From an uncultured Candidatus Saccharibacteria bacterium (lineage in GTDB: Bacteria; Patescibacteriota; Minisyncoccia; Phycocordibacterales; UBA1006): a stretch of DNA of 64,000 nt. Under the pieces are notes generated by a model. It made no database searches. It was given only the letters and a program-made list of their open reading frames with translations, and was not told the origin of the DNA. The translations under genes were made by a program, and so were the position numbers. Positions 2,096 to 26,316 of the stretch are shown here, piece by piece; position 1 is the stretch's first letter, and every line of letters begins with the position of its first letter. The stretch spans positions 79,541 to 143,540 of the forward strand of contig CAZQDL010000001.1 of assembly GCA_964592365.1 (NCBI GenBank). Reading direction: 5' to 3'.

Positions 2096-4447
2096 ATGAA
2101 GAAACCAATCATCTTACTCCTTGATGCTCATGCCATTATTCACAGGGCATATCATGCACTACCTGACTTCGCTACAAGAAGTGGTGTACCTACTGGAGCT
2201 ATTTATGGTTTTGCTACGATGGTTCTTAAAATCATAGATGATTTCAAGCCAACATATGTTGTTGCTTGTTTTGATCTTCCTGGAAAAACCTTTCGACATG
2301 AAAGTTATACCGAATACAAGGGAACTCGTTCTCAGACAGATACAGCTCTTAAGATGCAATTTGAAGCTACACGAGAGCTTTGTGATATTTTTGGTATTCC
2401 AATATATGATGCACCTGGATTTGAAGCTGATGACATGCTTGGAACAATCTGCACCCAATTAAAAGGAAAAGATTTTGATATTATCATTGCCTCAGGAGAT
2501 ATGGATACTCTTCAGTTAGTTGAGAAAAAAAGAGTGCAAGTATATACCCTAAAGAGAGGATTGAATGATACTGTGGTATATGATGAGCAAGCAGTATTTG
2601 ATAGATTTGGTTTCAAGCCAGCACAACTTATCGACTACAAAGGGTTAAGAGGAGATGCTTCTGATAATATTCCTGGGATAAAGGGTATTGGAGAAAAAAC
2701 CGCAGAGATAGCTATTCAGCATTTTGGAACCCTTGAAAATTTATATTCTTCCTTAGAAAAAGATGAGCAATTATTAATTGATGCTGGGTTAAGCAAACGA
2801 ATGGTTCAACTCATTAAAGAAGGAAAAGAAGATGCAGAATTCTCAAAGATACTTGCTACTATTCGACATGATGCCCCTATTGAGTTTTCATTACCCAAAC
2901 ACGCTTGGGGAGAACTTCTTGATATGGAAAAAGCAACCACCTTTTTTGATACATATGAATTGCGTGCCTTACCTGCTCGGTTACGAAGTTCAATGGGTAT
3001 TCAAGAAAAGATAGAAGAAAAACCAGAAGAAGTAATTGATCAAAAAGATTTTTCAAAAACTGCATTAGCGTTATGGCTACTTGATTCTGAAATGAAGGAA
3101 GCGAGTCTTGAAGATATGTTGATTTTCTCAAAGAAAAAAAGTTTTTTTGAAGCATCAGCATATATCACAGAACAGCTAAAGCATGATGAACCTTCGTACA
3201 AAATCTTTCAGCATATTGAAATACCATTGATGTCTGTAATCACTCATATGCAAGACCGAGGTATTAAGGTTGATGGAAATTTCTTTAAAAATCTTTCACG
3301 TGAATACCATCACAAACTTGATGCATTAGAAAAAGAAATTCAAGAAATGGCTGGTATGGATTTTAACCTAAGATCACCAAAACAACTCTCTGAGGTTCTG
3401 TTTGAACATATGGGTCTTTCAACAAAGGGTATTAAAAAATCAGGAAAGTCAGGAGTGTATTCAACCAATGCACAGATGCTTGAAAAATTGTTAGAAGAAC
3501 ACCCTATTATTCAACACATTCTTGATTACAGGGAATTGGATAAGCTGGTAGGTACGTACATTGATGTTATCCCTGACATGGTTTCTGATGATGGAAGATT
3601 ACATGCACAATTTATTCAGAACGGAACTACCACAGGAAGATTTTCCTCAAAGGATCCTAATATGCAAAATATTCCCACAAGAAGTGACCTAGGAAGAAAG
3701 ATACGAGAAGGATTTATCGCCGAAACAGGATATCAATTAGTTTCTTTTGACTATTCTCAAATTGAATTACGCTGTCTTGCTATGCTTTCATCAGACCAGA
3801 AACTCATTGATATTTTTAATGAAGGGAAAGATATTCATACGGCTGTTGCTTCTCTTATAGGAAATGTTCCTGAAGATGAAGTTGATAGGGAAATGAGAAG
3901 AAAAGCAAAGATTGTTAACTTTGGAATTCTCTATGGAATGGGAGTTAGTAGCCTGCGAAAGCAGATGGATACCGATAGGTTGGAAGCTCAAAAATTCCAT
4001 GATGGATTTTTCGAACAGTTCAAAGAGGCTACGGCATACCTAGAAGCAACGAAAGAGCATGCAAGAGCACATGGATACACCACAACTCTTTTTGGACGCA
4101 GAAGACAGTTTAAGAATATCAATTCAAAGCTTCCATTTATTAAAGCAATGGCAGAAAGAATGGCATTGAATGCACCTATTCAAGGAACTTCAGCAGACAT
4201 GATAAAGCTTGCAATGGTTGAGGTATATGAATATCTAAAACAAGAAACAGATATTGATGCACATTTTGTGTTGCAGATTCATGATGAAATTATTTTCGAA
4301 GTAAAAGATACAGATATTGAATTATTTACTACTAAGGTGAATGATATTATGGTTAATATATTGAGTTCTTCATATCTCTCGTATCATCCACCTATTCCTT
4401 TAGTGGTTCACTATTCAACAGGAAGACACTGGGGTGAGTTAAAATAA
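2096..4447 (+). CDS. polA: DNA polymerase I (5'-3' exonuclease plus polymerase domains)
   Basis: N-terminal 5'-nuclease motifs (LLLDAHAIIHRAYHA, GIPGIKGIGEKTA). Polymerase motif A DYSQIELR, motif B RRKAKIVNFGILYG and motif C QIHDEI. The ATG at 2096 follows the tsaE stop; the 2039 start would overlap tsaE. Confidence 0.9.
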   Translation: MKKPIILLLDAHAIIHRAYHALPDFATRSGVPTGAIYGFATMVLKIIDDFKPTYVVACFDLPGKTFRHESYTEYKGTRSQTDTALKMQFEATRELCDIFGIPIYDAPGFEADDMLGTICTQLKGKDFDIIIASGDMDTLQLVEKKRVQVYTLKRGLNDTVVYDEQAVFDRFGFKPAQLIDYKGLRGDASDNIPGIKGIGEKTAEIAIQHFGTLENLYSSLEKDEQLLIDAGLSKRMVQLIKEGKEDAEFSKILATIRHDAPIEFSLPKHAWGELLDMEKATTFFDTYELRALPARLRSSMGIQEKIEEKPEEVIDQKDFSKTALALWLLDSEMKEASLEDMLIFSKKKSFFEASAYITEQLKHDEPSYKIFQHIEIPLMSVITHMQDRGIKVDGNFFKNLSREYHHKLDALEKEIQEMAGMDFNLRSPKQLSEVLFEHMGLSTKGIKKSGKSGVYSTNAQMLEKLLEEHPIIQHILDYRELDKLVGTYIDVIPDMVSDDGRLHAQFIQNGTTTGRFSSKDPNMQNIPTRSDLGRKIREGFIAETGYQLVSFDYSQIELRCLAMLSSDQKLIDIFNEGKDIHTAVASLIGNVPEDEVDREMRRKAKIVNFGILYGMGVSSLRKQMDTDRLEAQKFHDGFFEQFKEATAYLEATKEHARAHGYTTTLFGRRRQFKNINSKLPFIKAMAERMALNAPIQGTSADMIKLAMVEVYEYLKQETDIDAHFVLQIHDEIIFEVKDTDIELFTTKVNDIMVNILSSSYLSYHPPIPLVVHYSTGRHWGELK

Positions 4448-4481
4448 ACAGCAATGCTGTTTATTTTGATATACTAAACAT

Positions 4482-5177
4482 ATGATTTTTTTAGTGTCAG
4501 GAAATAGTGAAGATAGGAAGTCTTATATTCATAAACAGATAAAAGAAGCAGGAGGAGATCCTGCAAAAGCTGTACGCATTACTGATACAGATATCAATGA
4601 GACCTGTTCCTTTAGTGATCTTGTTGTTAAGCAGGTAGGACTATTTGGTGATATTGAATACTATATTATCTCTGACCTTACTCGTTCATTGGATATAAGA
4701 AATATTCTGAATACCTTTAAAGAATCACCTCACTATTTATTCTTTTCAGAAGAAAGTGTAACAAAACCAATCATTTCAGCTTTTGAAAAAATAGATGCAA
4801 CCATACAATCTTTTGAGAAAGAGATTGTTGAAAAGAAAGAAGGAGGTAATAATATTTTTGTACTTTCTGATTTACTTGGAGCAAGGGATAAGAAAAATCT
4901 ATGGATTGCATATCATCAGGCATTGTCTTCAAGCTCCGTTGAAGAGATCATTGGGATACTCAATTGGCAGTTAAAAAATATGATACTGGTATATCAACAA
5001 CCTTCAGGGGTAGCGAGTATGAAACCTTTTGTATTTTCAAAAACACAGAGGTTTAATAAAAACTATTCTGAACATGAGGTTAGAGAATTATTAGTTTCAC
5101 TAACCAAAGCATTTCATTCACGAGATATTCATCACACACTTGAAGTTCAAGTAGAAGAAATTATTTTAGGATTATAA
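4482..5177 (+). CDS. DNA polymerase III delta subunit-like protein (HolA-like), short form
   Basis: The C-terminal helical region (LSDLLGARDKKNLWIAYHQAL...IIGILNWQLKNMILV) resembles the HolA C-domain. The gene sits next to polA. Confidence 0.4.
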   Translation: MIFLVSGNSEDRKSYIHKQIKEAGGDPAKAVRITDTDINETCSFSDLVVKQVGLFGDIEYYIISDLTRSLDIRNILNTFKESPHYLFFSEESVTKPIISAFEKIDATIQSFEKEIVEKKEGGNNIFVLSDLLGARDKKNLWIAYHQALSSSSVEEIIGILNWQLKNMILVYQQPSGVASMKPFVFSKTQRFNKNYSEHEVRELLVSLTKAFHSRDIHHTLEVQVEEIILGL

Positions 5178-5196
5178 AAAGCACAAAATGTGCTTT

Positions 5197-6165
5197 TTAT
5201 AATACGCCAACTATCTTTGCGATAAATACTGCATAGAAGAATAGCATAGCTATTCCTTCCCATGGTCGTACCTTATTATCAAACGTAACAAAGATGGCGA
5301 TAAAGGTTGCAATAACTAAAAAGGGTAGGCCAATAATGAATGTGGTGTCTGCAATTCCAAGAGGAGTTATGAGTGCTGGAATTCCTGCGATGAAAAGAAG
5401 GTTAAAAGTATTTGAACCAAGTACATTTCCAACAGCCATTCCGTGATTTCCTCTTTTTACCGCTGCAACTGAAGTAAGAATTTCAGGTAATGAAGTTCCG
5501 AGAGCAACTACGGTTATGGTGAGCATTGAAGAGGTGATGTTCAACAGTTGTGAGAGCATAAGAACACTATCAATAAGGTACTTAGCTGAAACTGAAAGTA
5601 TTCCAATACTAAGAACAATTGCTCCACTATAGATTAAGATACTCTTCTTTTTTGCTGATGGATCAGTATTTTCTTCAACAAGATCTTTCATTTCATCAAC
5701 ATCTATTAATTCAGGTTTTTGTCGAATGTTGTAAATTATGAAAATAATAAAGAATACTAACAGAGCAATTCCTTCAGGTGTTGAAATTACCTTATCAAGG
5801 GCAAAGTATCCAAATAGTGCCATCGACATAAAGAAGAAGGGAAGATCAACATCAATTAGGGATGTATTTATTTTTAATGTTTTAGCAGCAATTCCTGATA
5901 TCCCTAAAATTAATAACGCATTAGCAATATTAGAACCCACTATGTTATCAACAACAAAGGTTGTTTCACCTGCGTTAAGTGCGAATAAAGATGATACCAA
6001 TTCAGGAAGCGATGTTCCAACAGCAACGATGGTTGCCCCAATAATGAAAGAACTCATTCCAAAGAGTAATCCAATTCGCTCACTGTACTCGGTAAAGTAG
6101 TCAGCTGATTTAATTAAAAAGAATAAACTAGCGATAAGTATTCCTATCCAGATAATGATTTGCAT
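5197..6165 (-). CDS. Ca2+/Na+ antiporter, CaCA family (YrbG-like)
   Basis: Two alpha-repeat signatures GTSLPEL(V/I): GTSLPELVSS and GTSLPEILTS. About 10 predicted TM helices. Confidence 0.8.
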   Translation of the reverse strand: MQIIIWIGILIASLFFLIKSADYFTEYSERIGLLFGMSSFIIGATIVAVGTSLPELVSSLFALNAGETTFVVDNIVGSNIANALLILGISGIAAKTLKINTSLIDVDLPFFFMSMALFGYFALDKVISTPEGIALLVFFIIFIIYNIRQKPELIDVDEMKDLVEENTDPSAKKKSILIYSGAIVLSIGILSVSAKYLIDSVLMLSQLLNITSSMLTITVVALGTSLPEILTSVAAVKRGNHGMAVGNVLGSNTFNLLFIAGIPALITPLGIADTTFIIGLPFLVIATFIAIFVTFDNKVRPWEGIAMLFFYAVFIAKIVGVL

Positions 6166-6195
6166 ATGGAGGTATCATATCATTTTTTTCTCAGA

Positions 6196-6228
6196 GTAAA
6201 ATAAAAAGAAACACTAAGGTGTTTCTTT
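6196..6228 (-). terminator. Rho-independent terminator downstream of tRNA-Lys
   Basis: Hairpin AAAGAAACAC-TAAG-GTGTTTCTTT followed by a T-run on the minus strand. Confidence 0.6.
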
Positions 6229-6232
6229 CATG

Positions 6233-6305
6233 TCCCCCTGGAAGGGCTCGAACCTTCGACCGTCAGCTTAAAAGGCTGCTGCTCTACCGACTGAGCTACA
6301 GGAGG
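6233..6305 (-). tRNA. tRNA-Lys (anticodon UUU)
   Basis: Manual cloverleaf fold of the reverse complement. Acceptor stem CCTCCTG/CAGGGGG, D-arm GCTC-AGTCGGTA-GAGC, anticodon loop CTTTTAA, T-arm GAAGG-TTCGAGC-CCTTC, discriminator A. Confidence 0.8.
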
Positions 6306-6382
6306 ATGTCGATATGTAAGGCATTGCCGAACGTTGTAGATAGTATTACAGCATTGACTTAAGGTCAACACATATCTACAGT

Positions 6383-6868
6383 ATGAATATGCAATATTCA
6401 GTTCTCTTACATAATATTAGAAGCGCTCACAACGTTGGTTCTATTTTTAGAACTGCTGATGCAGCTGGTTTTTCTCATGTATATCTTTCAGGATATACCC
6501 CACTTCCCATTGACCGTTTCGGAAGAAAAAGAGCAGATATTGATAAGGTTGCACTAGGAGCACAAGAAATTGTTTCTTGGTCTGAAGTGAAAGATATTGA
6601 AATGTTTCTTCGTTCACATTATGTAGTTGCGGTTGAACAAGATGAACGTTCAATTCCATATGATAGCTTTGAAGCACCAAAAGAGGTACATGAATTAATT
6701 TTGATGATGGGCGAGGAAACTAAAGGAATTGAAAAAGAACTTCTTGTTGATGTAAGCTCTATTATTGAAATACCAATGAGGGGAGAGAAAGAATCTTTAA
6801 ACGTATCAGTCGCTTTTGCTGTTGTTGCTTATGAGATAACAAAAAACCACTTAAGAAAAAGTTCTTAA
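6383..6868 (+). CDS. SpoU/TrmH-family RNA 2'-O-methyltransferase
   Basis: SPOUT motifs (HNVGSIFRTADAAG, ESLNVSVAFAVVAYE). Size is about 160 aa, similar to TrmL. Confidence 0.7.
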   Translation: MNMQYSVLLHNIRSAHNVGSIFRTADAAGFSHVYLSGYTPLPIDRFGRKRADIDKVALGAQEIVSWSEVKDIEMFLRSHYVVAVEQDERSIPYDSFEAPKEVHELILMMGEETKGIEKELLVDVSSIIEIPMRGEKESLNVSVAFAVVAYEITKNHLRKSS

Positions 6869-6883
6869 GTGGTTGGTCTTTTG
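6846..6883. terminator. Bidirectional terminator between the convergent SpoU gene and the lipoprotein gene
   Basis: Palindrome CCACTTAAG-N8-CTTAAGTGG flanked by A- and T-runs. Confidence 0.55.
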
Positions 6884-6891
6884 ATTCAATT

Positions 6892-7449
6892 TTATTTTTT
6901 AACAAATTGAATATTTTTTAATTCGTTTTCAATTTGGTGTCCAATACCATTCCAATATCCATTCTCATATTGGTATAGGTCTGAATGGGTGAAGCAGTAC
7001 GCATCTATCTCTTCAGGAAATTCCGTTCTAGTTGTTACAATTAGTTGATATTTGCTAAATCTTTTTGGCTTAAAATGTGTAACTATTGGACTGAATTCAA
7101 TGCTCACATCTTCTCCATTAAAATCAAGATCATCAGGAAAGAAGTCATTGACGGTACCCTCCACGTTTACCAATTCCACTTTTTCGATGTAATCAGCAAC
7201 ATTTAAACTATTTTTATCTAAATGAATGTATTGCTCGATTTCTCGAACTGATGTTTTTGTCATATCGAAGACTATTTCGTAAACAACATTTCTTTTCCCT
7301 TCTTCTAAAATTGGGTCTATGTTTTGCATGTATACCTTATTAAAATACGATCCTTCCAAGGATTCTAATTCTTCAACATATGTTTCAGAGCAAGAGCTTA
7401 TTAATAAAGAGCTCAATAAGACAATCAATGGTAATAAAATTTTTTGCAT
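6892..7449 (-). CDS. Hypothetical lipoprotein
   Basis: Lipoprotein signal MQKILLPLIVLLSSLLISSC. Start trimmed to the Met that gives a canonical lipobox. A TTGACA-N16-TACTAT promoter is at 7481..7508 on the minus strand. Confidence 0.5.
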   Translation of the reverse strand: MQKILLPLIVLLSSLLISSCSETYVEELESLEGSYFNKVYMQNIDPILEEGKRNVVYEIVFDMTKTSVREIEQYIHLDKNSLNVADYIEKVELVNVEGTVNDFFPDDLDFNGEDVSIEFSPIVTHFKPKRFSKYQLIVTTRTEFPEEIDAYCFTHSDLYQYENGYWNGIGHQIENELKNIQFVKK

Positions 7450-7480
7450 GTGATATTTATTTTTTAAGTTATTTGATAAC

Positions 7481-7508
7481 ATAGTATCACTTATTTAGAA
7501 TATGTCAA
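7481..7508 (-). promoter_or_regulatory. Sigma70-like promoter (TTGACA-16nt-TACTAT) for the lipoprotein gene
   Basis: Read directly on the minus strand upstream of the 7449 start. Confidence 0.4.
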
Positions 7509-7562
7509 GTTATTTTATACATAATAAAACAGCTAATGGTCGAGCCAGAAGCTGTTTTTTGT

Positions 7563-8825
7563 TTAAAATATTTCAATTTCTTTTGATATATAAATATCGG
7601 GATCAAGTAACCTTTCATAGCTTTCTGATCCATTTTTATATTTTATTTTTTCAATGACACATTTATATTTTCCCTTAGGAAGTTGGGCAACGATTCCAAT
7701 TTGAAAATTTTCAGTTCCGTTTTGATCAATAATATAATCATTTGCATACACAAAAGCATTTGAACCCATATACACTGAAATATCCGAATCAGACACAGAA
7801 ATTTTTTGTTGAGTTCCAGTGTTAATAATCGAAAATATAATACTGCTCTTACCAACCTTTGAAATATATGCAGGTGCCTCAAAAGCTTCAATCTCTACTT
7901 GATATTCAAAGACTCCTTTGTTGTTGAAAGTAATAGCTTCACTTTTTATTAAAGCAACATCGATGCCTTTTGAGAATAAGAAATAATTTCTCATATCTGC
8001 TGATCCAGTAATATCTAAGCTTGAAAGTGTATTTGCCTCCTCATCGAATGCAACAGTTTCTTGAAGACTTTTTTCTGATACTTCAAAAGAAATTCCCTGT
8101 CCCTCTTGATAATTATTGTTCTGCTTCATATATGTTACAAAAACTTGTACATCATATATTTCACCATTACTTAAAAGCATATTTTGAGTATTGAAGATTA
8201 CAAGTTCCTTTGTGGTTCCTTGAATACTTCTATGATCCCATGCATTAAAATCTTTTCCATCAATTGATATAGACATATCAGAAATAATTAAATTAAAAGA
8301 TTTCCCATGAGTATCTACCTCAAAAGATATTTTACCTAAAAGAACATCTGCAGATTCAGCTGGCACCTCAAGACTAAAAACATATGATTCAATAGAATCT
8401 GAGATATCATTTTCATCTACCTCGTATCGAGTATATGAAATTGGGCAATTCTCTGAGCTTGAAATGATTAATTCAACCGGTAAGTTGGTCATTACCTTTT
8501 TTGAAAATAGGACTTCTCCCGTTTTTGTTTCTAAAAAAGTAATTGCTATTTCAGTTTCTGGCTCAAGCCCTGAGATAGTTTCAATTCCATTTTCTATAGA
8601 GCCTACATATTCATATGTAGTGATTTCAGTATTATTCTCGCTTTGTATTACAAGACGAGTAGTTTCTTTTTCTCCTGCCTTAATTGAAAATGTAATTTCG
8701 ATTTCTCGAGAACTTGTCTTGGTAACTTCAAATGAGGTTACTCTTGTTGGTTCTGCGATAATATCATCATCATTTTGACATGAAGATAAAAGTGAAAGGA
8801 AAAAGATGCATAAAAGTTTTTTCAT
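7563..8825 (-). CDS. Hypothetical lipoprotein (420 aa)
   Basis: Signal plus lipobox MKKLLCIFFLSLLSSC. No recognisable catalytic motifs. Confidence 0.5.
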   Translation of the reverse strand: MKKLLCIFFLSLLSSCQNDDDIIAEPTRVTSFEVTKTSSREIEITFSIKAGEKETTRLVIQSENNTEITTYEYVGSIENGIETISGLEPETEIAITFLETKTGEVLFSKKVMTNLPVELIISSSENCPISYTRYEVDENDISDSIESYVFSLEVPAESADVLLGKISFEVDTHGKSFNLIISDMSISIDGKDFNAWDHRSIQGTTKELVIFNTQNMLLSNGEIYDVQVFVTYMKQNNNYQEGQGISFEVSEKSLQETVAFDEEANTLSSLDITGSADMRNYFLFSKGIDVALIKSEAITFNNKGVFEYQVEIEAFEAPAYISKVGKSSIIFSIINTGTQQKISVSDSDISVYMGSNAFVYANDYIIDQNGTENFQIGIVAQLPKGKYKCVIEKIKYKNGSESYERLLDPDIYISKEIEIF

Positions 8826-8914
8826 GATGTTTATTATTTAATTGTTAGTGTTATTTATTTTAACAATATAATTTAATTTTAATTTGTCAATTTATATAAG
8901 GTATTAAAAAAGCC

Positions 8915-9490
8915 CTATGAATTACTTAGTATGTTCAGGGCTTCTTTTATTTTCTCATTCATTTGGGTTGTTTTAGTATCAATTTTTGCAAGAGCATTGA
9001 GTGCTTGAGCAGGACTATAGCCAAGAGCAACTAAAGCATCAATCACATCACGATCACCTTCATTTGTATGAATTTCTGTATTTCCTGCATAGTTTTTAAG
9101 CTTATCCTGTAGTTCAATACACATACGTTCTGCTGTTTTCTTTCCAATTCCTGGAACTGAACTAAGAAAATCAATATTCTTTGAAAGAATTGCTTGATAT
9201 AGGGTGTCAGTTGAAGCAAGACCAATGATGGCTAATCCTGATTTTGGTCCGATTCCAGAAACATCAATTAATTTCTTGAAAAAGAACAATTCATTTTGTG
9301 TTTCAAAACCATATAGATCAAGAGCATTTTCTCTTACCAAAGTATGAATCCAAAGAGAAATATTTTTCTGGGTTAATGCCCAAGCTAGGGTATTTTCAGT
9401 AACAAGAATTTGATACCCTACATCTCGTACATCGAGGATAATGGTTCCTTCTGTTGATTCAAATGCTTTTCCTGAGAGATATCCAATCAT
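8915..9490 (-). CDS. ruvA: Holliday junction branch-migration protein RuvA
   Basis: N-terminal OB fold (MIGYLSGK...GTIILDVRDVGYQILV), two HhH motifs (GIGPKSGLAII, VPGIGKKTAERM) and the C-terminal domain III. Confidence 0.85.
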   Translation of the reverse strand: MIGYLSGKAFESTEGTIILDVRDVGYQILVTENTLAWALTQKNISLWIHTLVRENALDLYGFETQNELFFFKKLIDVSGIGPKSGLAIIGLASTDTLYQAILSKNIDFLSSVPGIGKKTAERMCIELQDKLKNYAGNTEIHTNEGDRDVIDALVALGYSPAQALNALAKIDTKTTQMNEKIKEALNILSNS

Positions 9491-9504
9491 ATAACTAGTA
9501 TATC

Positions 9505-10455
9505 ATGGAGTATCTATGTATTATATATAATATGAACTTTAATCCAGAAAAAATTAATATTCCTGAAAAAAGGGGAATATTAGAAAATGAAAAGCATCTA
9601 AATATTCTATATGAAAGAATAGAGAAAAAACTTGCTAGTTATAAGCCAGATCTTGAAGATTTTCGGGATATCTATTTTGATGAAGTTGATAAAGATATGG
9701 TTTATGTTGAAGAAAAATTGAAACAATTTGATGAATCATTAAATAACAGAGAGGATGGAGATTTTTTTAAGAAAGAAAAAAAAATTGCTCTTATCACTGA
9801 GGGAATTCTTACAGACCAATTATCAGGAGAGTGGTTTAACTCTCTTAAAGAGGACGCTCCATATACTGTGGTTGCACATCCAACTTCAGATTTTGATGAC
9901 ATACGTAATGGGGCTGATTTGGTTCTAGAAGTTTTTAACAAAGACAAAGAGCAATCAAAACACTTGGGATTATCAATTGACGTTACTTTTTCTTCAGATA
10001 TTGAAAATCTTAACAGAAAGATGGAAAGGATAATTGGAGATATTACAGGAAAACATGGAAAACCTGCTCAAGTAAAATATTTTGAAAGTGATTTTGATGA
10101 TTACAAAGGTGCCGTAACCATCGCAAGAAGTGTTATTGTTCTTTCAAGAAATACCATAGAAGATCTCTTTAAAAAAGAATACTCAAGAGACAAAGACGGT
10201 CTTTCAAGTCACCAAGTTCAGCTTTCATTGCTCACCCAACTTCAAGAGCAAGCAGAAACTTTTTTACAGTTATGTAAGGTTCATGGAAATTCAGAACTTG
10301 GAAGTATTTATGAGGATATTTATAAAAATATCAAATATCTCAAAGACGAGAAAAAAATAAGTCATTTTGAATTAGAACAAGACCCAATATTACTTCAAGA
10401 AAAGTATGACGGTCTTAAATTACTGCATCGAGCATTACTCAATAACATAATGTAA
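9505..10455 (+). CDS. Hypothetical protein (316 aa)
   Basis: Long ORF with coding-like composition. No motifs recognised. Confidence 0.4.
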   Translation: MEYLCIIYNMNFNPEKINIPEKRGILENEKHLNILYERIEKKLASYKPDLEDFRDIYFDEVDKDMVYVEEKLKQFDESLNNREDGDFFKKEKKIALITEGILTDQLSGEWFNSLKEDAPYTVVAHPTSDFDDIRNGADLVLEVFNKDKEQSKHLGLSIDVTFSSDIENLNRKMERIIGDITGKHGKPAQVKYFESDFDDYKGAVTIARSVIVLSRNTIEDLFKKEYSRDKDGLSSHQVQLSLLTQLQEQAETFLQLCKVHGNSELGSIYEDIYKNIKYLKDEKKISHFELEQDPILLQEKYDGLKLLHRALLNNIM

Positions 10456-10457
10456 AA

Positions 10458-11222
10458 ATGAATATAGACATTCTTTTTGAAAATAAACACGTCCTCATCA
10501 TTAATAAGCCTGCTGGTTTAGTGGTCCATCCCGATGGGAAAACAACCGAACCTACTGTCGTAGATTGGGTTCTTGAAAGATACCCAGAAATCAATGGGGT
10601 AGGTGAAGATATGGAATTTGATTTCAAAGGAGAAACCATTTGTATTAAAAGACCGGGAATTGTTCATCGTATAGATAGAGATACTTCAGGTTGTTTGGTC
10701 ATCGCAAAAACTGAAGATTCATTTCAACATATCAAACAGCTTTTCAAAGACAGAAAAATATCAAAAACATATCAAGCTTTGGTATATGGTGCGATACCAA
10801 AAGATCAGGGAATTATAGATGCCCCTATTGGAAAAAGCAGAAAGGAATTTCGTTTGATGCAAGCTGGCCCTGATGCTCGCGGTTTACTTCGTGATGCTTA
10901 TACAGAGTACAAGGTACTACAGAGATTTGAAGATATACATGATATAGATAAACAAAAGCAAACAGCAAAATATACTCTTGTCTCTTTATCACCTAAAACA
11001 GGAAGAACTCACCAACTTAGGGTTCATATGAAATATATACATCACCCTATTGTTTCTGATTCTCTGTATAAGGGTAAAAGAAAGAATGTCTTGGGTATGG
11101 AACGCACAGCTCTTCACGCAATGAGCATTTCTTTTGTTGATCTTGATAATATGGAAATTAATGTTGTCTGTGATATTCCACAGGACATGCAACATTCTAT
11201 ACAAAGACTCTCTACAATGTAG
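10458..11222 (+). CDS. RluA-family pseudouridine synthase
   Basis: Catalytic motif HRIDRDTSG and the downstream HQLRVHM motif. Confidence 0.8.
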   Translation: MNIDILFENKHVLIINKPAGLVVHPDGKTTEPTVVDWVLERYPEINGVGEDMEFDFKGETICIKRPGIVHRIDRDTSGCLVIAKTEDSFQHIKQLFKDRKISKTYQALVYGAIPKDQGIIDAPIGKSRKEFRLMQAGPDARGLLRDAYTEYKVLQRFEDIHDIDKQKQTAKYTLVSLSPKTGRTHQLRVHMKYIHHPIVSDSLYKGKRKNVLGMERTALHAMSISFVDLDNMEINVVCDIPQDMQHSIQRLSTM

Positions 11223-13955: not shown

Positions 13956-14031
13956 GGTGACTATGGTATAACGGTTATTACTCGGGTTTGTGGTACCTGC
14001 AATCAGGGTTCGATTCCCTGTAGTCACCCCA
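13956..14031 (+). tRNA. tRNA-His (anticodon GUG) with a genome-encoded G-1 and an encoded 3' CCA
   Basis: Manual fold. G-1 at 13956. Acceptor stem GTGACTA/TAGTCAC, anticodon stem-loop CGGGT-TTGTGGT-ACCTG, T-arm CAGGG-TTCGATT-CCCTG, discriminator C, then CCA. Confidence 0.8.
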
Positions 14032-14169: not shown

Positions 14170-14367
14170 ATGAAAAATCAATCAAAGAACGATGAAAACA
14201 TTGAGTTACTGACCTTGCAAGAGGCTTGTGACGTACTCAAGGTACATCCCAACACCTTACGACAATGGGATAAAATAGGAACGCTTCCCGCTATTCGCAT
14301 TGGGACCAAGCGTATACGACGTTACAGAAAACAAGACATTATGAGTTTCCTTGAAGGTAACTCATAA
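14170..14367 (+). CDS. Small HTH DNA-binding protein of the excisionase (Xis/MerR-like) family. Possible island excisionase or R-M controller.
   Basis: LTLQEACDVLKVHPNTLRQWDKIGTLPAIRIGTKRIRRY matches the excisionase-family helix-turn-helix pattern. It is the first gene after tRNA-His and the first gene of the methyltransferase operon. Confidence 0.55.
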   Translation: MKNQSKNDENIELLTLQEACDVLKVHPNTLRQWDKIGTLPAIRIGTKRIRRYRKQDIMSFLEGNS

Positions 14368-14398: not shown

Positions 14399-15061
14399 AT
14401 GAACAATCTTACTAAATCAAAAAAACGAATACGTGACCATGGTGAAGTTTTCACCCCTGATTTTATTGTGGAAGATATGCTTGATTTGGTGAAAAATGAA
14501 ACTGAGCGTATAGAGTCACGCTTTCTTGAGCCCGCGTGTGGAGATGGAAATTTCTTGATCAAAGTACTTGAACGAAAGATGGAGGTTGTAAAAAAACGAT
14601 ACAAGAAAAGTCAATTTGATTATGAGAGAATGGTGCTCATTGCTGTGGGAAGTACATACGGAGTTGATTTACTAGATGATAACGTCAAAGATGCACGTGA
14701 TAGGTTACATGAATACTGTGCGAATGAATATATTAAACTATTCAAAAATAAGGTTCACGAAGAGGTATTAGAAAGTATGAGATACATTTTAAGTAAAAAT
14801 ATCTTACAAGGTGATGCTTTGAGTTTAAAAAACAAAAATGGCGAACCGATAACTTTTGCAGAATGGTCTCTTGTAAATGGTTCAAAAATAAAACGCAGAG
14901 ATTTCCAATTTGTAGACCTTGCTGAATTTGACCCAGCTATCCCAAGCTTGTTTTCTGTCAGTGAAGAGTCAGACACGGGTAAGGTAGTATTTTCGCCACA
15001 ACCATCAATAGATTATCCAGCAGTAAATTTTATGAAATTACATGAATCATATGAAAACTAA
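14399..15061 (+). CDS. N6-adenine methyltransferase-like protein. It has the SAM-binding motifs X and I but lacks the catalytic motif IV.
   Basis: GEVFTPDFIV (motif X) and FLEPACGDGNFL (motif I). A possible motif III is ILQGDALS. No (N/D/S)PP(Y/F/W) follows. Start trimmed to the ATG at 14399. Confidence 0.45.
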   Translation: MNNLTKSKKRIRDHGEVFTPDFIVEDMLDLVKNETERIESRFLEPACGDGNFLIKVLERKMEVVKKRYKKSQFDYERMVLIAVGSTYGVDLLDDNVKDARDRLHEYCANEYIKLFKNKVHEEVLESMRYILSKNILQGDALSLKNKNGEPITFAEWSLVNGSKIKRRDFQFVDLAEFDPAIPSLFSVSEESDTGKVVFSPQPSIDYPAVNFMKLHESYEN

Positions 15062-16565
15062 CCTTAACTACAATCCAGATGTACTTGATGCACTTGCTAA
15101 CCTTAGTAACGATGAGGTCTTTACACCACCAAAACTTGTAAATGAAGTCCTAGATATGTTACCTAGCGAACTTTGGAATGATAAGAATGCAACATTTTTA
15201 GACCCAGCAACAAAGTCAGGAGTATTTTTACGAGAAATTGCAAAACGTTTGATTGAAGGACTTGAAAAAGAAATTCCAGATCTACAAGAACGACTTAATC
15301 ATATCTATACCAAACAATTATTTGGCATTGGAATCACAGAACTGACTTCGTTACTCGCCCGCAGGAGTCTCTATTGTTCAAAAATAGCAAATCACGAAAA
15401 ATACTCGGTATGTACAGAATTTGAAAACCCAGATGGAAACATTAGATTCGAGCGCATTGAACATGCTTGGAAGAATGGAAAATGTGAAGACTGTGGAGCG
15501 AGCGAAGGTGAGTATGATCGACATGAATCGCTAGAAACCCATGCCTATGAATTTATTCATAAAAAACCAGAAGAAATTATCAGTTTATTTAATAAAAAAG
15601 ATATGAAATTTGACGTAATTATAGGAAATCCACCATACCAAATGGGTACTGGTGGTCCATCTGCTCAAGCAACGCCTTTGTACGATAAGTTCGTTCAGCA
15701 AGCAAAAAAACTAAATCCAAGATTTCTATCAATGATTATCCCCGCACGGTGGTACAGTGGAGGAATGGGTCTCAATGATTTTAGATCTGACATGTTGAAT
15801 GATCAACGTTTACGGAAGCTTGTGGATTACACAGATTCATCAGAATGTTTTCCTGGTGTTTCGATTAAGGGAGGTATTTGTTATTTTCTCTGGAATAGAG
15901 ATGACCGTGGTTTATGTAATGTTTTAAGTATTACAAATGGACAAAAAAAAGAATCAGATAGATTTCTAGTTGAAGAAGGAAGTGATATTTTTATTAGATT
16001 CAATGAAGCAATATCAATCTTAAGAAAAGTTAAAGATAAGAAAGAGAAATTATTTTATGAATTTGTTTCTTCACAAAAACCATTTGGATTCCCAACAAAT
16101 TTTAGAGGAAAATCAAAACCATTTAAAGACTCAATTAAAATTTATGTAACAAAAGGCATTAACTATATTGATCGCAACCTTGTTGAGAAAAACATTGATT
16201 TAATTGATAGTTATAAAATCTTGAATACAAAAGGATATGGAGCTGGAGAATCTTTTCCACATCAAATTTTAAATAAACCAATCTTAGCTGAACCAGGAAC
16301 TTGCTGTTCGGAGACATACATTGTATTAGGTATTTATAAAAATAGAGAAGAAGCTGAAAATGCAATTTCTTATATAAAAACCAAATTTTTTAGATTTCTT
16401 GTTATGCTACAAAAGAACACTCAGGATTCCTTAAAAAGGGTTTATAAATTTGTTCCAATACAAGATTTTTCAGAAGAATGGACAGACGAAAAGTTATATA
16501 AAAAATACAAACTAACCAAAGAAGAAATTGATTTTATCGAATCAATGATTCGACCAATGGAATAA
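15042..16565 (+). CDS. Gamma-class N6-adenine DNA methyltransferase (Eco57I/TaqI-like motif order X-I-IV) with a 4-Cys insertion
   Basis: DEVFTPPKLV (X), FLDPATKSGVFL (I) and FDVIIGNPPYQ (IV). A CxxxxxxxxC...CxxC zinc-ribbon-like insert lies between motifs I and IV. Confidence 0.75.
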   Translation: MNHMKTNLNYNPDVLDALANLSNDEVFTPPKLVNEVLDMLPSELWNDKNATFLDPATKSGVFLREIAKRLIEGLEKEIPDLQERLNHIYTKQLFGIGITELTSLLARRSLYCSKIANHEKYSVCTEFENPDGNIRFERIEHAWKNGKCEDCGASEGEYDRHESLETHAYEFIHKKPEEIISLFNKKDMKFDVIIGNPPYQMGTGGPSAQATPLYDKFVQQAKKLNPRFLSMIIPARWYSGGMGLNDFRSDMLNDQRLRKLVDYTDSSECFPGVSIKGGICYFLWNRDDRGLCNVLSITNGQKKESDRFLVEEGSDIFIRFNEAISILRKVKDKKEKLFYEFVSSQKPFGFPTNFRGKSKPFKDSIKIYVTKGINYIDRNLVEKNIDLIDSYKILNTKGYGAGESFPHQILNKPILAEPGTCCSETYIVLGIYKNREEAENAISYIKTKFFRFLVMLQKNTQDSLKRVYKFVPIQDFSEEWTDEKLYKKYKLTKEEIDFIESMIRPME

Positions 16566-16566
16566 T

Positions 16567-19071
16567 ATGTCTGACAAATACTTTTCACAACGGCCAGATG
16601 TATCGCCGATAATATATGTATATGAACTCCCAACTGCAGAGGACAGAAAGGGTCTCTTGAAGGTGGGTTACACCACTCGAAATGCCAGCGACCGAATCAA
16701 GGAACAAGTTGGGACCGCAGGGATTGGATATAATATCCTTTTGGAAGAAAGTGCAATTCGCAGTGATGGATCTACCTTTGACGATCATGAGGTACACCAT
16801 TATTTACGCAAAAAGAAATATCCTAACCCTGACGGTGAATGGTTTGAGTGTGGTTTGGATGATGTAAAAGCAGCTATTTATTCTATAAAGAATCGAAAAG
16901 AAAATACCGAAAATCGTACGCTTGATTTCAGAATGAGACCAGAACAAGAAATGGCTATGAATAAAGCATATAGCCATTTCACATCCATGAATGAAACTTC
17001 TCATTTTTTGTGGAATGCAAAAATGCGTTTTGGTAAAACATTTGCTTCGTATCAACTTGCAAAGAAAATGAAATCAAAAAAGGTCCTGGTATTAACCTTC
17101 AAGCCAGCAGTAGAGACCGCTTGGGAGGAAGATCTTTTGACGCATATAGATTTTGAAGGATGGCAATTCTATTCACGTAAAAGTACAGCAGAGTTTGAAG
17201 ATCTTGACATGAATAAACCAATCGTTTGTTTTGGATCATTGCAGGATTATCTAGGGAAAAGTTCAGGAGGAGGAATCAAGGCTCGAAACAAATGGGTTCA
17301 TGATACCCATTGGGATTTAGTTATTTTTGATGAATACCACTTTGGTGCATGGAATGATAAAACAAAAGATCTTTTTGATGAGACCGATAAGGATGATCAG
17401 AATACTGAAGAGAAAAAAAACGACAGTATCGCCAAAGAAGCATTTGCTGAGGGTTTGAAAAACGCTGAGGCAATAATGCCTATAACCACGGATAATTATC
17501 TGTATCTTTCAGGTACTCCATTTCGTGCTATAAATACGGGTGAATTTATAGAAGAGCAGATATTTAATTGGACGTATTCTGACGAACAGCGTGCAAAAGA
17601 AGAATGGAAGGGTTCCAATAATCCATATGAATCATTGCCAAAAATGATTATGATGACCTATCAAATGCCTGATTCTATCAAGCATATAGCGGAAGGGGGC
17701 GAATTTAATGAATTTGATTTGAATGTTTTTTTCTCTGCAAAAAAGAATGATACTGGCATGTATGAATTCGTGTATAAAGATTATGTTCAAAAGTGGCTAG
17801 ATTTATTGCGAGGTAATTTCATGCCAACGGCAGTTGATGATTTGAAACTAAGTAAGCAGAAACCGCCTTTCCCATTTTCTGATTCACGAATGTTGAGTAT
17901 CTTAACGCATACGTTTTGGTTTATGCCTTCAGTGGCCTCTTGTCACGCCATGAAGAATCTTATTGACGAGCGACAAAATGCATTCTATCAAGATTATAAA
18001 TTGATCGTCGCTGCTGGAAATCAAGCTGGAATGGGAGTAGAGGCTCTTGGTCCAGTACAAAAAGCAATGGGCGATCCATTAAAAACAAAAACTATTACAC
18101 TATCTACGGGAAAACTTACAACAGGAGTTACTGTGAAGCCTTGGACTGGTGTCTTGATGCTTCGTAATTTGAAAAGCCCTGAAACATATTTTCAGACGGC
18201 TTTTCGTGGTCAAAGTCCATGGGTGATTGATAATCCAGATGGAAAATCGCCTAATAAAAAAGAGATTTTGAAAAAACAATGTTATATCTTTGACTTTGCT
18301 CCCAATCGTGCACTTTCTCAAGTTGCAGATTATAGTTCAAATCTAAATGTTACCGAGAAAGATCCAGAGAAAAAAGTTGCAGAGTTTATAAAATTCCTTC
18401 CCATTCTTGCATATGATGGAAGCTCGATGAAAGAGATTGATGCAGGTGGAGTTCTGGATATTGCATTAAGTGGTACCACAGCTACCTTGCTTGCACGTCG
18501 ATGGGAGAGCGCATTATTGGTAAATGTAGATAATGAGACTCTTGCACGCCTTATGTCAAGTGATGAGGCGATGAGAGTTTTAATGAGTATTGAAGGCTTT
18601 CGTTCTTTGAACCAAGACATTGAGACGATCATCAACAAATCTGAATCGGTAAAAAAGACAAAGCAGGAAGCAAGTGAGCGTGAGTTAACCAAAAAAGAAA
18701 AGAAAGAGCTTAGCGATGATGAAAAAGAATATAAGAGTAAAAGGAAAGAGATTCAGGAAAAACTGATCAAGTTTGCAACACGTATTCCCGTATTCATGTA
18801 CCTAACTGATTATCGTGAACGCACACTAAAGGATGTCATCACAAAGCTTGAACCGTCGTTATTCAAAAAAGTAACAGGACTAGAGGTGAAAGATTTTGAA
18901 CTTTTAATGAGCTTGAATATCTTTAATAATGCCCTAATGAATGATGCAGTGTATAAATTTAAACGCTACGAGGATTCCAGTCTTGAGTATACTGGTGTTA
19001 ATCGACATGAAGGCGAAGATGTTGGGGGATTCGATACCGTAACTACAGAAAAAGAATACAAGCAAATGTAA
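16567..19071 (+). CDS. SF2 helicase of the type III Res (ResIII)-like family, with an N-terminal T5orf172/GIY-YIG-like domain. Putative restriction or defence ATPase-nuclease.
   Basis: N-terminus YVYELPTAEDRKGLLKVGYTTRNASDRI...GEWFEC. Helicase motifs: Q-like RPEQEMA, motif I RFGKTFAS, motif II DEYHFG, motif III LSGTPF, and C-terminal RecA-like motifs (LTTG, FRGQS). There is only a 1 nt gap after the methyltransferase stop. Confidence 0.65.
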   Translation: MSDKYFSQRPDVSPIIYVYELPTAEDRKGLLKVGYTTRNASDRIKEQVGTAGIGYNILLEESAIRSDGSTFDDHEVHHYLRKKKYPNPDGEWFECGLDDVKAAIYSIKNRKENTENRTLDFRMRPEQEMAMNKAYSHFTSMNETSHFLWNAKMRFGKTFASYQLAKKMKSKKVLVLTFKPAVETAWEEDLLTHIDFEGWQFYSRKSTAEFEDLDMNKPIVCFGSLQDYLGKSSGGGIKARNKWVHDTHWDLVIFDEYHFGAWNDKTKDLFDETDKDDQNTEEKKNDSIAKEAFAEGLKNAEAIMPITTDNYLYLSGTPFRAINTGEFIEEQIFNWTYSDEQRAKEEWKGSNNPYESLPKMIMMTYQMPDSIKHIAEGGEFNEFDLNVFFSAKKNDTGMYEFVYKDYVQKWLDLLRGNFMPTAVDDLKLSKQKPPFPFSDSRMLSILTHTFWFMPSVASCHAMKNLIDERQNAFYQDYKLIVAAGNQAGMGVEALGPVQKAMGDPLKTKTITLSTGKLTTGVTVKPWTGVLMLRNLKSPETYFQTAFRGQSPWVIDNPDGKSPNKKEILKKQCYIFDFAPNRALSQVADYSSNLNVTEKDPEKKVAEFIKFLPILAYDGSSMKEIDAGGVLDIALSGTTATLLARRWESALLVNVDNETLARLMSSDEAMRVLMSIEGFRSLNQDIETIINKSESVKKTKQEASERELTKKEKKELSDDEKEYKSKRKEIQEKLIKFATRIPVFMYLTDYRERTLKDVITKLEPSLFKKVTGLEVKDFELLMSLNIFNNALMNDAVYKFKRYEDSSLEYTGVNRHEGEDVGGFDTVTTEKEYKQM

Positions 19072-19104: not shown

Positions 19105-19710
19105 TTAAATATCTTTTTCATCCATGAGTTCGCGAATAGTCTTATCTTTGTAGGTCCAGAATATTGAACCCTGAACCGCTTTCCAGTTTTTCTTGAATTT
19201 TTCCTTGAGGATTATTTTAGCCGACTTTGATAAAGATGTTTCTTTACCTTTATAAATAATACTATTTCCATTACCTACTGTTGCGATGATATCAGAGTAT
19301 ATTTCATCTCCTTCTTTAAATTTTAAAATCTCTCCTTTTTGGATATTTAATTTAGTGAACTTACCAAGGATTTTTTTATCTTCTTCTTTTCTAATCTTTT
19401 TGTTGTCTTCGATAAAGTCACATATCCTTTCTGGGTGTTCTTCAAAGAACTCTCGTTTTCTATTTACTCTCTTTTTTGCAAAATGTTGAAAGATTTCTTG
19501 TTCAAGAACCTCAGCATTCTTCATGTCAAATTTCTCATATACTTGAAATCTGGTAGGTAGTGATGTCCTATTAAGACTTTTAAGTCTCTGCTCTATATCA
19601 TTCGTCACTCCCACCTTGCATATATTTGGCATAGATATGTTGGTGATAATGTATAAGGTGCTTTTCATGTAGATAGTATAGCTTAATTTAATAAAATTTA
19701 TATTATTCAC
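19105..19710 (-). CDS. T5orf172 (MUG113/GIY-YIG-like) domain protein with a C-terminal extension
   Basis: YIITNISMPNICKVGVTNDIEQRLKSLN...RVNRKREFF matches the T5orf172 pattern. Confidence 0.55.
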   Translation of the reverse strand: MNNINFIKLSYTIYMKSTLYIITNISMPNICKVGVTNDIEQRLKSLNRTSLPTRFQVYEKFDMKNAEVLEQEIFQHFAKKRVNRKREFFEEHPERICDFIEDNKKIRKEEDKKILGKFTKLNIQKGEILKFKEGDEIYSDIIATVGNGNSIIYKGKETSLSKSAKIILKEKFKKNWKAVQGSIFWTYKDKTIRELMDEKDI

Positions 19711-23894: not shown

Positions 23895-23949
23895 GAACTT
23901 ATTATATAGTAGAATTACTGTGTTTTAAAGATTATTTATTGGAATTATT

Positions 23950-23988
23950 TTTACAAAAAGTTCCGTATCCTAACCACAAACTGACCCT
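23950..23988 (+). repeat. Intergenic repeat copy A (TTTACAAAAAGTTCCGTATCCTAACCACAAACTGACCCT)
   Basis: A member of the family that occurs at least 9 times between 23.9 and 33.9 kb. Confidence 0.85.
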
Positions 23989-24037
23989 ATTTAGTGCTAG
24001 CACGAGAAGGTTCGTTTTCTCTGGTCTCAGCACAAAT

Positions 24038-24928: not shown

Positions 24929-25564
24929 ATGAAAAAAATAAAGTATATAATTACTATTTTAGTTGTATTACTATCATTCATTTCTACACTCTTCGTAGAA
25001 AATGGAATAAGTTATGGCAACTGTTTTCACCATGAAGATAAGAAAGATTTATATAGAGATATACCTCATAGGTACTGTATAAGCGAAAGTATTGATATTT
25101 TATCGTTTATAAAATCAAAAAGAAGTATTAACCACAATCATGGATATGTAAATATACATATACAATATCAAAATATACTCCCTTATATTTTACTACCAAT
25201 ATTTGGCTTAATTACCTTTTTTGCTTTTTCAAGAAAACAAATTTATAAAATAAATGGATGGCTTGTATTTGCTTTAATAGTATTCCCTCTGCTGGCACCA
25301 TTTGGTTGGGCAGTATTTTTAACTAATAATTTTGCATTAGGGAATTCAATTGCATGGGGTTTGTATTTAGGTTTGTTAATTGCTCTTATTTATTCATTGT
25401 TTAATAAGCAGGGAAATAAGAAATTAGTAATTATTTATATTGTTATGGGAATCACCTCGGTGTTGTTATATTCGTTTATAAACAGTGCCATAAAAGGTGC
25501 ATTTTATAATTATGGTGGTCCTCCGATGCCACAAGAAAATATACCTCAACTAAGTTTCGATTAA
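24929..25564 (+). CDS. Polytopic membrane protein (211 aa)
   Basis: About 5 TM helices. Confidence 0.45.
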   Translation: MKKIKYIITILVVLLSFISTLFVENGISYGNCFHHEDKKDLYRDIPHRYCISESIDILSFIKSKRSINHNHGYVNIHIQYQNILPYILLPIFGLITFFAFSRKQIYKINGWLVFALIVFPLLAPFGWAVFLTNNFALGNSIAWGLYLGLLIALIYSLFNKQGNKKLVIIYIVMGITSVLLYSFINSAIKGAFYNYGGPPMPQENIPQLSFD

Positions 25565-25576
25565 CTATAATTATTA

Positions 25577-25623
25577 AAAGTTCCGCATCCTAACCACAAA
25601 CTGACCCTAACGGGTTAGGATAC
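25577..25623 (+). repeat. Intergenic repeat copy B, full palindromic form (…GCATCCTAACC-ACAAACTGACCCTAACG-GGTTAGGATAC)
   Basis: 9 bp inverted arms ATCCTAACC/GGTTAGGAT flanking a 17 nt spacer. Sits directly after the stop of 24929..25564. Confidence 0.85.
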
Positions 25624-26268: not shown

Positions 26269-26284
26269 CTTAGTATAATGGTAA

Positions 26285-26313
26285 GGTTCCGTATACTATT
26301 TACAAACTGACCT
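26285..26313 (+). repeat. Intergenic repeat copy C (variant GGTTCCGTATACTATTTACAAACTGACCT)
   Basis: Lies 17 nt after the pilin stop. A hairpin and T-run terminator follow at 26317..26348. Confidence 0.75.
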
Positions 26314-26316
26314 AAA

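Follow-up and report, generated by a model that had tools for sequence, protein, structure and literature searches.

A conserved half-methyltransferase as the probable small subunit of a DrdVI/MaeIV-type split restriction-modification system in a Candidatus Saccharibacteria bacterium

What is the function of a protein that resembles the first half of a DNA methyltransferase and is encoded directly ahead of a methyltransferase that looks complete? This question is raised by a 64,000-nucleotide (nt) stretch of DNA, referred to here as the window, from an uncultured Candidatus Saccharibacteria bacterium (assembly GCA_964592365.1, contig CAZQDL010000001.1, positions 79,541 to 143,540). In this window, a small subunit of 220 residues, M1 (14399..15061, + strand), is followed by M2 (15042..16565, +), a 507-residue N6-adenine methyltransferase of the Eco57I family with a target-recognition region (Pfam Eco57I E=5e-36; PADLOC MTase_II E=4e-54), and by R (16567..19071, +), an 834-residue restriction subunit. 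An initial annotation made from the sequence alone described M1 as a methyltransferase paralogue with the S-adenosylmethionine (SAM)-binding motifs X and I but no catalytic motif IV, and offered three options for its role: a SAM-binding regulatory or specificity partner, an inactivated duplicate, or a remnant of N-terminal domain shuffling. The results described below favor a SAM-binding partner as the best fit of the three, and place M1 in a three-gene system with a helicase-nuclease and in a named family (M1/M2.DrdVI, M1/M2.MaeIV), both of which the initial annotation had missed.

The M1 protein begins MNNLTKSKKRIRDHGEVFTPDF at an ATG. An upstream TTG at position 14351 would extend the protein to 236 residues, and the gene callers applied to public contigs use both starts; the alignment of homologues favors the ATG. 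M1 carries all four cofactor-binding motifs (X, I, II, and III) on the + strand, each invariant or nearly so across the family, so that motifs II and III join the two recognized initially. Motif X, read from the sequence as GEVFTP (14441..14458), contains E16, V17, and T19, and motif I, the canonical glycine loop FLEPACGDGNFL (14522..14557), contains E44, A46, C47, G48, G50, and N51, all of which are invariant in 31 homologues. Motif II, located with the homologue alignment, is YGVD (14657..14668) and takes the form YGV[DE] across the family, as the acid that ends strand 2 is always Asp or Glu. Motif III, located by sequence and homologue alignment, is GDAL (14810..14821), or G[DN]AL across the family. 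The catalytic pattern (N/D/S)PP(Y/F/W) is absent from the 220 residues of M1 and from the approximately 85 M1 homologues inspected, so that the description of M1 as an N-half paralogue lacking motif IV holds. Motifs V-VIII and a target-recognition domain are likewise absent from M1, which stops 42 residues past the expected position of motif IV, and the Pfam and PADLOC matches to M1 are to the N-part of methyltransferase profiles only.

The layout of M1 consists of residues 1-178, which hold motifs X, I, II, and III and a β-hairpin, followed by a 42-residue tail. The N-part has a mean pairwise identity of 59%, while the tail is poorly conserved (31% mean identity), and neither the C-terminal hairpin nor the tail is found outside the M1 family. 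A degenerate motif IV in the tail was considered, as SDTG...P in the tail resembles by eye the SDGG...P that follows NPPY in M2. This candidate was rejected when a profile of the tail (76 sequences) was compared to M2 with hhalign (E=0.5 to 0.86), and no alignable motif IV is found in the C-terminal part (profile comparison E=0.5). The AlphaFold2 (AF2) model of M1 is a compact fold (predicted local distance difference test (pLDDT) 80; predicted template modeling score (pTM) 0.78), and its best match in the PDB is CamA, over the N-part only (147 columns). Judged from its sequence, M1 is an intact and strongly conserved half of a gamma-class N6-adenine methyltransferase, comprising the N-terminal part that binds the cofactor and ending just before motif IV, and methylation by M1 alone would be impossible despite the public annotation of its homologues.

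The limits of this half-enzyme can be read from a set of 18 single-chain methyltransferases of approximately 500 residues, designated F-type here (e.g., P0200, P0271-P0275, and P0387 from Niastella populi). M1 residues 1-178 have their counterpart in the first approximately 180 residues of the F-type proteins (hhalign probability 100, E=9e-68, 45% identity), and this M1-like N-half runs directly into FDVIIGNPPY and then into an M2-like C-half. The homology between M1 and the F-type proteins stops at M1 residue 178, directly ahead of the F-type motif IV. M1 is therefore equivalent to the entire cofactor-binding N-half of an F-type enzyme with a 42-residue tail added. In contrast to the window system, the F-type enzymes are one polypeptide without an M2-type N-half, the M1 tail, or an R gene, and both M1 and R are absent from all six of the F-type loci examined. 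The F-type C-halves are up to 83% identical to, and interleaved with, the C-halves of M2 proteins; the C-half of P0273, for example, has 83.5% identity to an M2-type protein and only 73% identity to the nearest F-type protein.

A conserved ORF (open reading frame) of approximately 197 residues follows the F-type gene in four of the six loci (L088:8795-9388, L092:6573-7166, L173:6521-7114, and L174:6520-7122). Its product has no Pfam match and carries conserved D..DY and VQERFR motifs, and it may be the small restriction nuclease of a two-gene system.

M1 is a member of a very large family. A word-indexed homologue search returned at least 7,956 M1 matches of approximately 220 residues from bacteria and archaea, and the best 120 of these are nearly all 214-242 residues in length (two are shorter), with 58-100% identity across essentially their entire length. 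When 50%-identity representatives were searched exhaustively, 308 M1 clusters reached E≤1e-30 and 2,016 reached E≤1e-10; nearly all of these are stand-alone proteins of approximately 200-290 residues. The homologues range from Patescibacteria to Methanococcus with overall identities of 46-89%, and conservation spans the full protein, with 41 columns invariant in 31 sequences. Close relatives, in which the ORF might have been absent or disrupted, carry it undamaged (76-89% identity, 217-223 residues).

The association of M1 with its neighbors was probed in both directions. The first sample consisted of 80 loci chosen via M1 patterns from one-genome-per-species contigs, and spans Patescibacteria, Omnitrophota, Bacteroidota, Bacillota, Actinomycetota, Planctomycetota, Verrucomicrobiota, Spirochaetota, Woese- and Nanoarchaeota, and Methanococcus. 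Across this sample, M2 (approximately 500 residues, NPPY near residue 187) is the next gene wherever the contig extends past M1, and R (approximately 840 residues) comes after M2 wherever the contig reaches it. The reciprocal sample consisted of 80 metagenomic loci picked by the M2 N-half alone, six of which have less than 700 nt upstream and are not assessable. M1 is found directly upstream of M2 in all 74 assessable loci, with no orphan M2 lacking M1 among them, and related loci thus keep both ORFs. Overall, M1 lies immediately 5' of an Eco57I-type M2 in 154 of 154 assessable loci, with a T5orf172-helicase protein (R) after M2 wherever the contig is long enough. The M1 stop and the M2 start overlap in the window by 20 nt if M2 begins at ATG 15042, or by 11 nt if it begins at ATG 15051 (public gene calls use both), and an overlap, most often of 8 nt, is kept in approximately 129 of 150 related loci. 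Overlapping stop and start codons in so many loci are a pattern typical of co-translated subunits, in agreement with the translational coupling to the downstream gene that had been suggested. M1 is obligatorily linked to M2 and R.

Some variation in gene content is seen around this constant arrangement. In locus L024, from a Polaribacter metagenome-assembled genome (MAG), one M1 gene is followed by two M2 genes, at 7638-9140 (500 residues) and 9293-10684 (463 residues), and then by R. The recognition regions of these two M2 proteins differ, having 30% and 40% identity to that of the window, which suggests that a single M1 is able to serve two M2 specificities. Unrelated genes are present between M2 and R in some loci (L002:10212-11231 and L089:6683-7693), and these insertions include a DUF1016/YhcG nuclease-like gene in an Omnitrophota MAG and, in a gut contig, an Abi_2 gene with the opposite orientation.

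The same three genes are found in two restriction-modification (R-M) systems that have already been named. A tblastn search of plasmids identified them in DrdVI, on plasmid pDrdVI of Deinococcus wulumuqiensis NEB479, where the M1 protein (WP_114673821.1, a coding sequence labeled "DNA methyltransferase") has 44.5% identity to the window M1 over 98% of the query, and where M2 and R have 50% and 55% identity to their window counterparts. The M1, M2, and R proteins of MaeIV, from Methanococcus aeolicus PL15/Hp (CP104873, locus L001), are 64%, 64%, and 74% identical to those of the window, respectively. The window, DrdVI, and MaeIV systems have gene order, protein sizes, and domains in common, namely a small M1, an Eco57I-type M2, and an R that combines a GIY-YIG/T5orf172 domain with a translocase. 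In the window, R contains an N-terminal T5orf172/GIY-YIG-like nuclease domain (T5orf172/MUG113), a superfamily 2 (ResIII) helicase/translocase, and a conserved C-terminal region at residues 561-834 (Pfam T5orf172 E=3.6e-8, ResIII E=5e-6). Additionally, the fused PADLOC profile REase_MTase_IIG matches R at E=3e-31 and also matches M2. The window cassette is distinguished from DrdVI and MaeIV by an additional upstream helix-turn-helix (HTH) gene and by a neighboring tRNA-His. On these correspondences, the window gene is very probably the M1 of a DrdVI/MaeIV-type R-M system composed of M1, M2, and R.

DrdVI and MaeIV have been named by the REBASE authors as "split methylase/RM" genes of Type IIG (PMC6430315, PMC10113651, PMC4996451). 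M1-2.DrdVI has been cloned and expressed and is a IIG enzyme with GCAGCC as its site and N6-methyladenine (6mA) as its product (PMC6430315), M1-M2.MaeIV is assigned GCACY and m6A, and DrdVI is described as a translocase fused to a restriction endonuclease with a GIY-YIG domain (PMC4996451). The cloned M1+M2 pairs of both homologues methylate one adenine on one strand of a short asymmetric site. In the literature searched, no biochemical study of the family was found, nor any data on nucleoside triphosphate-dependent restriction of unmodified DNA. The target-recognition region of the window M2 shares no more than 54% identity with that of MaeIV, and this value, the best obtained for the recognition region, is too low for a recognition sequence to be predicted by similarity.

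The relationship between M1 and M2 is central to the role of M1. The M2 N-half (residues 1-185; 15042..15596, +) is a divergent paralogue of M1, as identified by profile comparison and alignment. The N-terminal likeness noted initially is confirmed by BLASTP (31% identity over 94 residues, E=1e-7) and by hhalign, which aligns M1 residues 14-104 with M2 residues 23-111 (probability 96.9%, E=1.4e-10). The M2 N-half contains an invariant motif X, DEVFTPP (15111-15131, +). Its motif I, FLDPATKSGVFL (15195-15230, +), is non-canonical and follows the pattern DP-x-x-K-[ST]-G, in which an invariant Lys (Lys58) takes the place of the first Gly found in M1 and in canonical enzymes. The position of motif II is occupied in M2 by Ala or Gly where M1 has Asp or Glu, and no conserved acid is found in M2 at the position of motif III. 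The C-half of M2 (15597..16565, +), an exchangeable cassette that runs from motif IV onwards, contains the catalytic tetrapeptide NPPY (residues 196-199; 15627..15638, +), which is invariant in 36 homologues, and the variable target-recognition region (residues ~301-440).

The M2 N-half also contains a conserved Cys/His cluster (C112, H141, C148, and C151, within residues 99-168; window ~15336-15545). This cluster is located in an insertion without an M1 counterpart, where the pLDDT of the AF2 model is below 50, and is probably a zinc-binding element. A C-half-only form of M2 was also considered, as the PADLOC profile PDLC03375 begins at motif IV and one 323-residue protein, P0301, seemed to fit; this form was rejected when P0301 proved to come from an ordinary M2 gene that is broken by a frameshift on a contig of low coverage.

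Comparison of pairwise-distance matrices across 88 non-redundant loci reveals that the three genes make up two evolutionary modules. The matrices of M1, M2 residues 1-185, and R are intercorrelated (r=0.42-0.77), while segments of M2 residues 186-507 correlate among themselves (r=0.27-0.63) and only slightly with the M1/N-half/R block (r=0.04-0.25). In 19 locus pairs, the M2 N-halves are at least 90% identical and the M2 C-halves are less than 60% identical; in the ten of these pairs that were listed, M1 is 82-99% identical, R is 89-98% identical, and the M2 C-half is 37-48% identical. Sliding-window comparison of the four most discordant pairs places the break in identity at M2 residue ~185-195, just before motif IV. 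This is illustrated by L071 and L078, in which M1 (97%), the M2 N-half (93%), and R (90%) are nearly the same, the M2 C-half is only 37% identical, and the break occurs just before FDVIIGNPPY. Other M2 C-half exchanges are seen between L141 and L164 and between L017 and L162. These patterns indicate that the M2 C-half, which would carry both catalysis and recognition, is a swappable cassette, and that M1, the M2 N-half, and R form a constant chassis. Cassette exchange of this kind argues that M1 is not the specificity subunit. A specificity role was accordingly rejected: M1 tracks the M2 N-half and R rather than the recognition region, and M1 proteins that are 95-99% identical are found beside C-halves and recognition regions that are only 37-48% identical. 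Thus, of the "regulatory or specificity partner" suggested for M1 in the initial annotation, the SAM-binding partner stands and the specificity function does not.

The overall explanation that we propose, to which we assign an even chance of being correct, is that M1 is an obligate SAM-binding partner of M2 in a DrdVI-type split methylase and has no role in specificity. M1 would be made in step with M2 and would bind M2, the N-half of which would be its nearest evolutionary tie. M1 would be needed for methylation as the supplier of the canonical SAM-binding half. The M2 N-half, without the canonical first glycine of motif I and the acids of motifs II and III, appears to be kept for a role tied to R. 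The M2 C-half, with NPPY and the target-recognition region, would provide catalysis and sequence specificity and would be exchanged between systems as a cassette, and M1 would not set specificity. M1 is proposed to bind SAM, to associate with M2, and to be required because only the M1 half keeps the canonical cofactor-binding residues; a requirement for M1 in methylation is further suggested because the R-less single-chain relatives keep the M1-type half and because M2 is never found without M1.

The individual parts of this explanation differ in strength. It is likely that M2 activity requires M1, while the proposal that the M1 pocket is the working SAM site for the NPPY of M2 falls slightly short of an even chance. 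A more detailed and more tentative model has two N-halves for each C-half, wherein M1 would give the catalytic half of M2 its working SAM pocket in trans and the more conserved M2 N-half, with its Lys loop and Cys/His cluster, would have been repurposed to couple to the helicase-nuclease. In this model, the C-half, from motif IV to the recognition region, would plug in as a specificity cassette, with recombination at the half-domain joint occurring both from one such system to another and with single-chain methyltransferases.

The alternative that survives best is that M1 is a non-catalytic pseudo-subunit. M2 would then be complete, with SAM bound by its own N-half, and M1 would be a structural or regulatory partner of M2 and possibly of R; for example, by sensing SAM at a second site, M1 might license restriction or switch the complex between methylation and cleavage. 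By analogy, the division of labor in the Type III Mod dimer and pairs of catalytic and degenerate methyltransferases might be comparable. Several observations weigh against the overall explanation proposed above and toward this alternative. Mean pairwise identity within M2 is highest in residues 1-115 (69%), followed by the catalytic segment (63%) and the recognition region (35%), such that the N-half is the most conserved segment of M2, unlike a decaying pseudo-domain. Its invariant motif X is retained, and M2 looks self-sufficient. The AF2 model of M2 (pTM 0.72) has the fold of a complete gamma-class enzyme that includes the N-half of M2 itself: strand 1, helix A, and strand 2 are confidently placed (pLDDT 81-96), and Foldseek gives full-length matches to CamA, BrxX, M.BseCI, and M.TaqI. 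As the model matches whole enzymes such as CamA and M.TaqI, there is no obvious room for the M1 half in the same fold. The M1 model is itself compact, and the R-less single-chain relatives have no separate M1 subunit. M1 co-evolves as one block with the M2 N-half and R, with no co-evolution signal between M1 and the M2 catalytic segment (partial r about 0); the M2 N-half itself is hardly more correlated with that segment (r=0.25). Furthermore, the literature searched contains no published comparison of M2 alone with M1+M2 and none that explains the role of M1.

Against the pseudo-subunit alternative, a self-sufficient M2 would predict M1-less derivatives, and none occur in the 74 loci. Likewise, the R-less single-chain forms keep an M1-type rather than an M2-type N-half, and the canonical ribose- and adenine-binding acids are missing from the M2 N-half. 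On balance, we consider the pseudo-subunit possible but somewhat doubtful.

It was also considered that M1 merely travels with the R-M operon and works on its own as a SAM-dependent enzyme or SAM-binding protein, with a different target such as a protein, RNA, or small molecule, or as a SAM scavenger. A full set of cofactor motifs without the DNA-adenine catalytic motif, together with a family-unique C-terminal hairpin and tail, is what such a protein could look like. However, the linkage and overlap with M2 are strict, an M1-like half serves as the N-half of single-chain DNA methyltransferase relatives, and no candidate catalytic residues are conserved in the tail, making an independent enzyme very unlikely. 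The least probable explanation is that M1 is an inactivated duplicate or a functionless leftover of domain shuffling: M1 lacks motif IV and everything after it, and an origin by N-half duplication is plausible, but non-functional DNA is hardly to be reconciled with the full 220 residues being conserved, with invariant motif residues, in homologues that number in the thousands and come from archaea as well as many bacterial phyla, always beside M2 (74 of 74 assessable loci), with a conserved stop/start overlap and intact close relatives. Such conservation effectively excludes both of these earlier options.

Comparison to known enzymes helps to define what is unusual about this arrangement. CamA, M.TaqI, M.BseCI, and BrxX/PglX, which are solved gamma-class enzymes, have a fold in common with the M2 model over the full length (E down to 3e-14). 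Each of these enzymes is a single chain with only one N-half, and none of them is known to require a separate half-methyltransferase subunit. Like the window-type family, the Type III Mod2-Res and Type ISP systems (EcoP15I and LlaGI) carry out single-strand modification at a short asymmetric site; their restriction component combines a helicase-like motor with a nuclease, and a single recognition module serves both activities. In Type III systems, the Mod subunits are two identical full-length proteins of the beta class and the nuclease is of the PD-(D/E)xK type, and Type ISP enzymes are a single chain, whereas the window system has a gamma-class methyltransferase, a T5orf172/GIY-YIG-like nuclease, and a second "Mod" that is only a half-protein. 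Two polypeptides are also required for one methyltransferase activity in the naturally split DNA methyltransferases M.AquI alpha/beta and M.EcoHK31I alpha/beta. These methylate cytosine at C5, and neither of their parts is duplicated in the other; in contrast, the large subunit of the window system, M2, still has its own copy of the part given by the small subunit.

A distant variant is encoded on the Lactococcus lactis conjugative plasmid pCV56A (L006), where an M1-like protein of 230 residues (2824-3516) is followed by a chain of 1,452 residues (3518-7876) that fuses R, a degenerate M2-type N-half, and an NPPY C-half. In this variant, M1 stays canonical (EPAAGDGNFL, YGIEFL), and the M2-type N-half is further degenerated to EINSKTG. 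Similar matches are found on Enterococcus and Lactococcus plasmids.

The R-M genes of the window are preceded by a 65-residue HTH_17/excisionase-like protein (14170..14367, +; Pfam HTH_17 E=6e-13; PADLOC mad1 E=1.5e-9), which was considered as a conserved controller. This idea was rejected and the HTH gene is regarded as a neighbor rather than a component of the system, as only 3 of 139 related loci have a homologue of it upstream of M1. Membership in MADS (methylation-associated defense system) was likewise rejected, as M1 scores 23 bits against an NCBIfam equivalog cut-off of 720 for MAD2 and the HTH protein scores 21 bits against a cut-off of 80 for MAD1, which reflects generic motifs only. 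Scores for BREX membership were also far below the cut-offs. A tRNA-His identified by ARAGORN (13957..14031, +) is located directly upstream of the HTH-M1-M2-R block, which suggests that the block is an island inserted at the tRNA-His, a possible insertion hotspot. No direct repeat of the tRNA-His 3' end was found downstream, and the boundaries of the island were not found. Convergent on the end of R is a gene for a stand-alone T5orf172/MUG113 protein of 201 residues (19105-19710, -), which matches the PADLOC candidate defense family PDC-S57 (E=1.4e-38). Further downstream of the R-M block, a 47-nt direct-repeat family with the core GTTCCGTATCCTAACCACAAACTGACCCTA occurs between small ORFs at 23943-23989, 25563-25609, and 26269-26315; copies are 87% and 62% identical to the reference.

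The named three-gene DrdVI/MaeIV family is already known, and the correspondence between M1 and the F-type enzymes, the divergent M2 N-half, and the exchange of C-half cassettes are new. Homologues of M1 carry public labels such as "DNA methyltransferase" or "N-6 DNA methylase", and the window gene can now be given a confident annotation as the M1 subunit of a DrdVI-type R-M system, in place of a pseudogene or a "DNA methyltransferase" that stands alone. This annotation bears on a very large family, with thousands of members in bacteria of the candidate phyla radiation, gut Firmicutes and Actinobacteria, and archaea. The divergent M2 N-half, the presence of the M1-type half in single chains, and the exchange of C-halves together frame the question of how a half-methyltransferase and an apparently complete methyltransferase function together. 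Finally, C-half swaps on a constant chassis suggest a practical route to new specificities.

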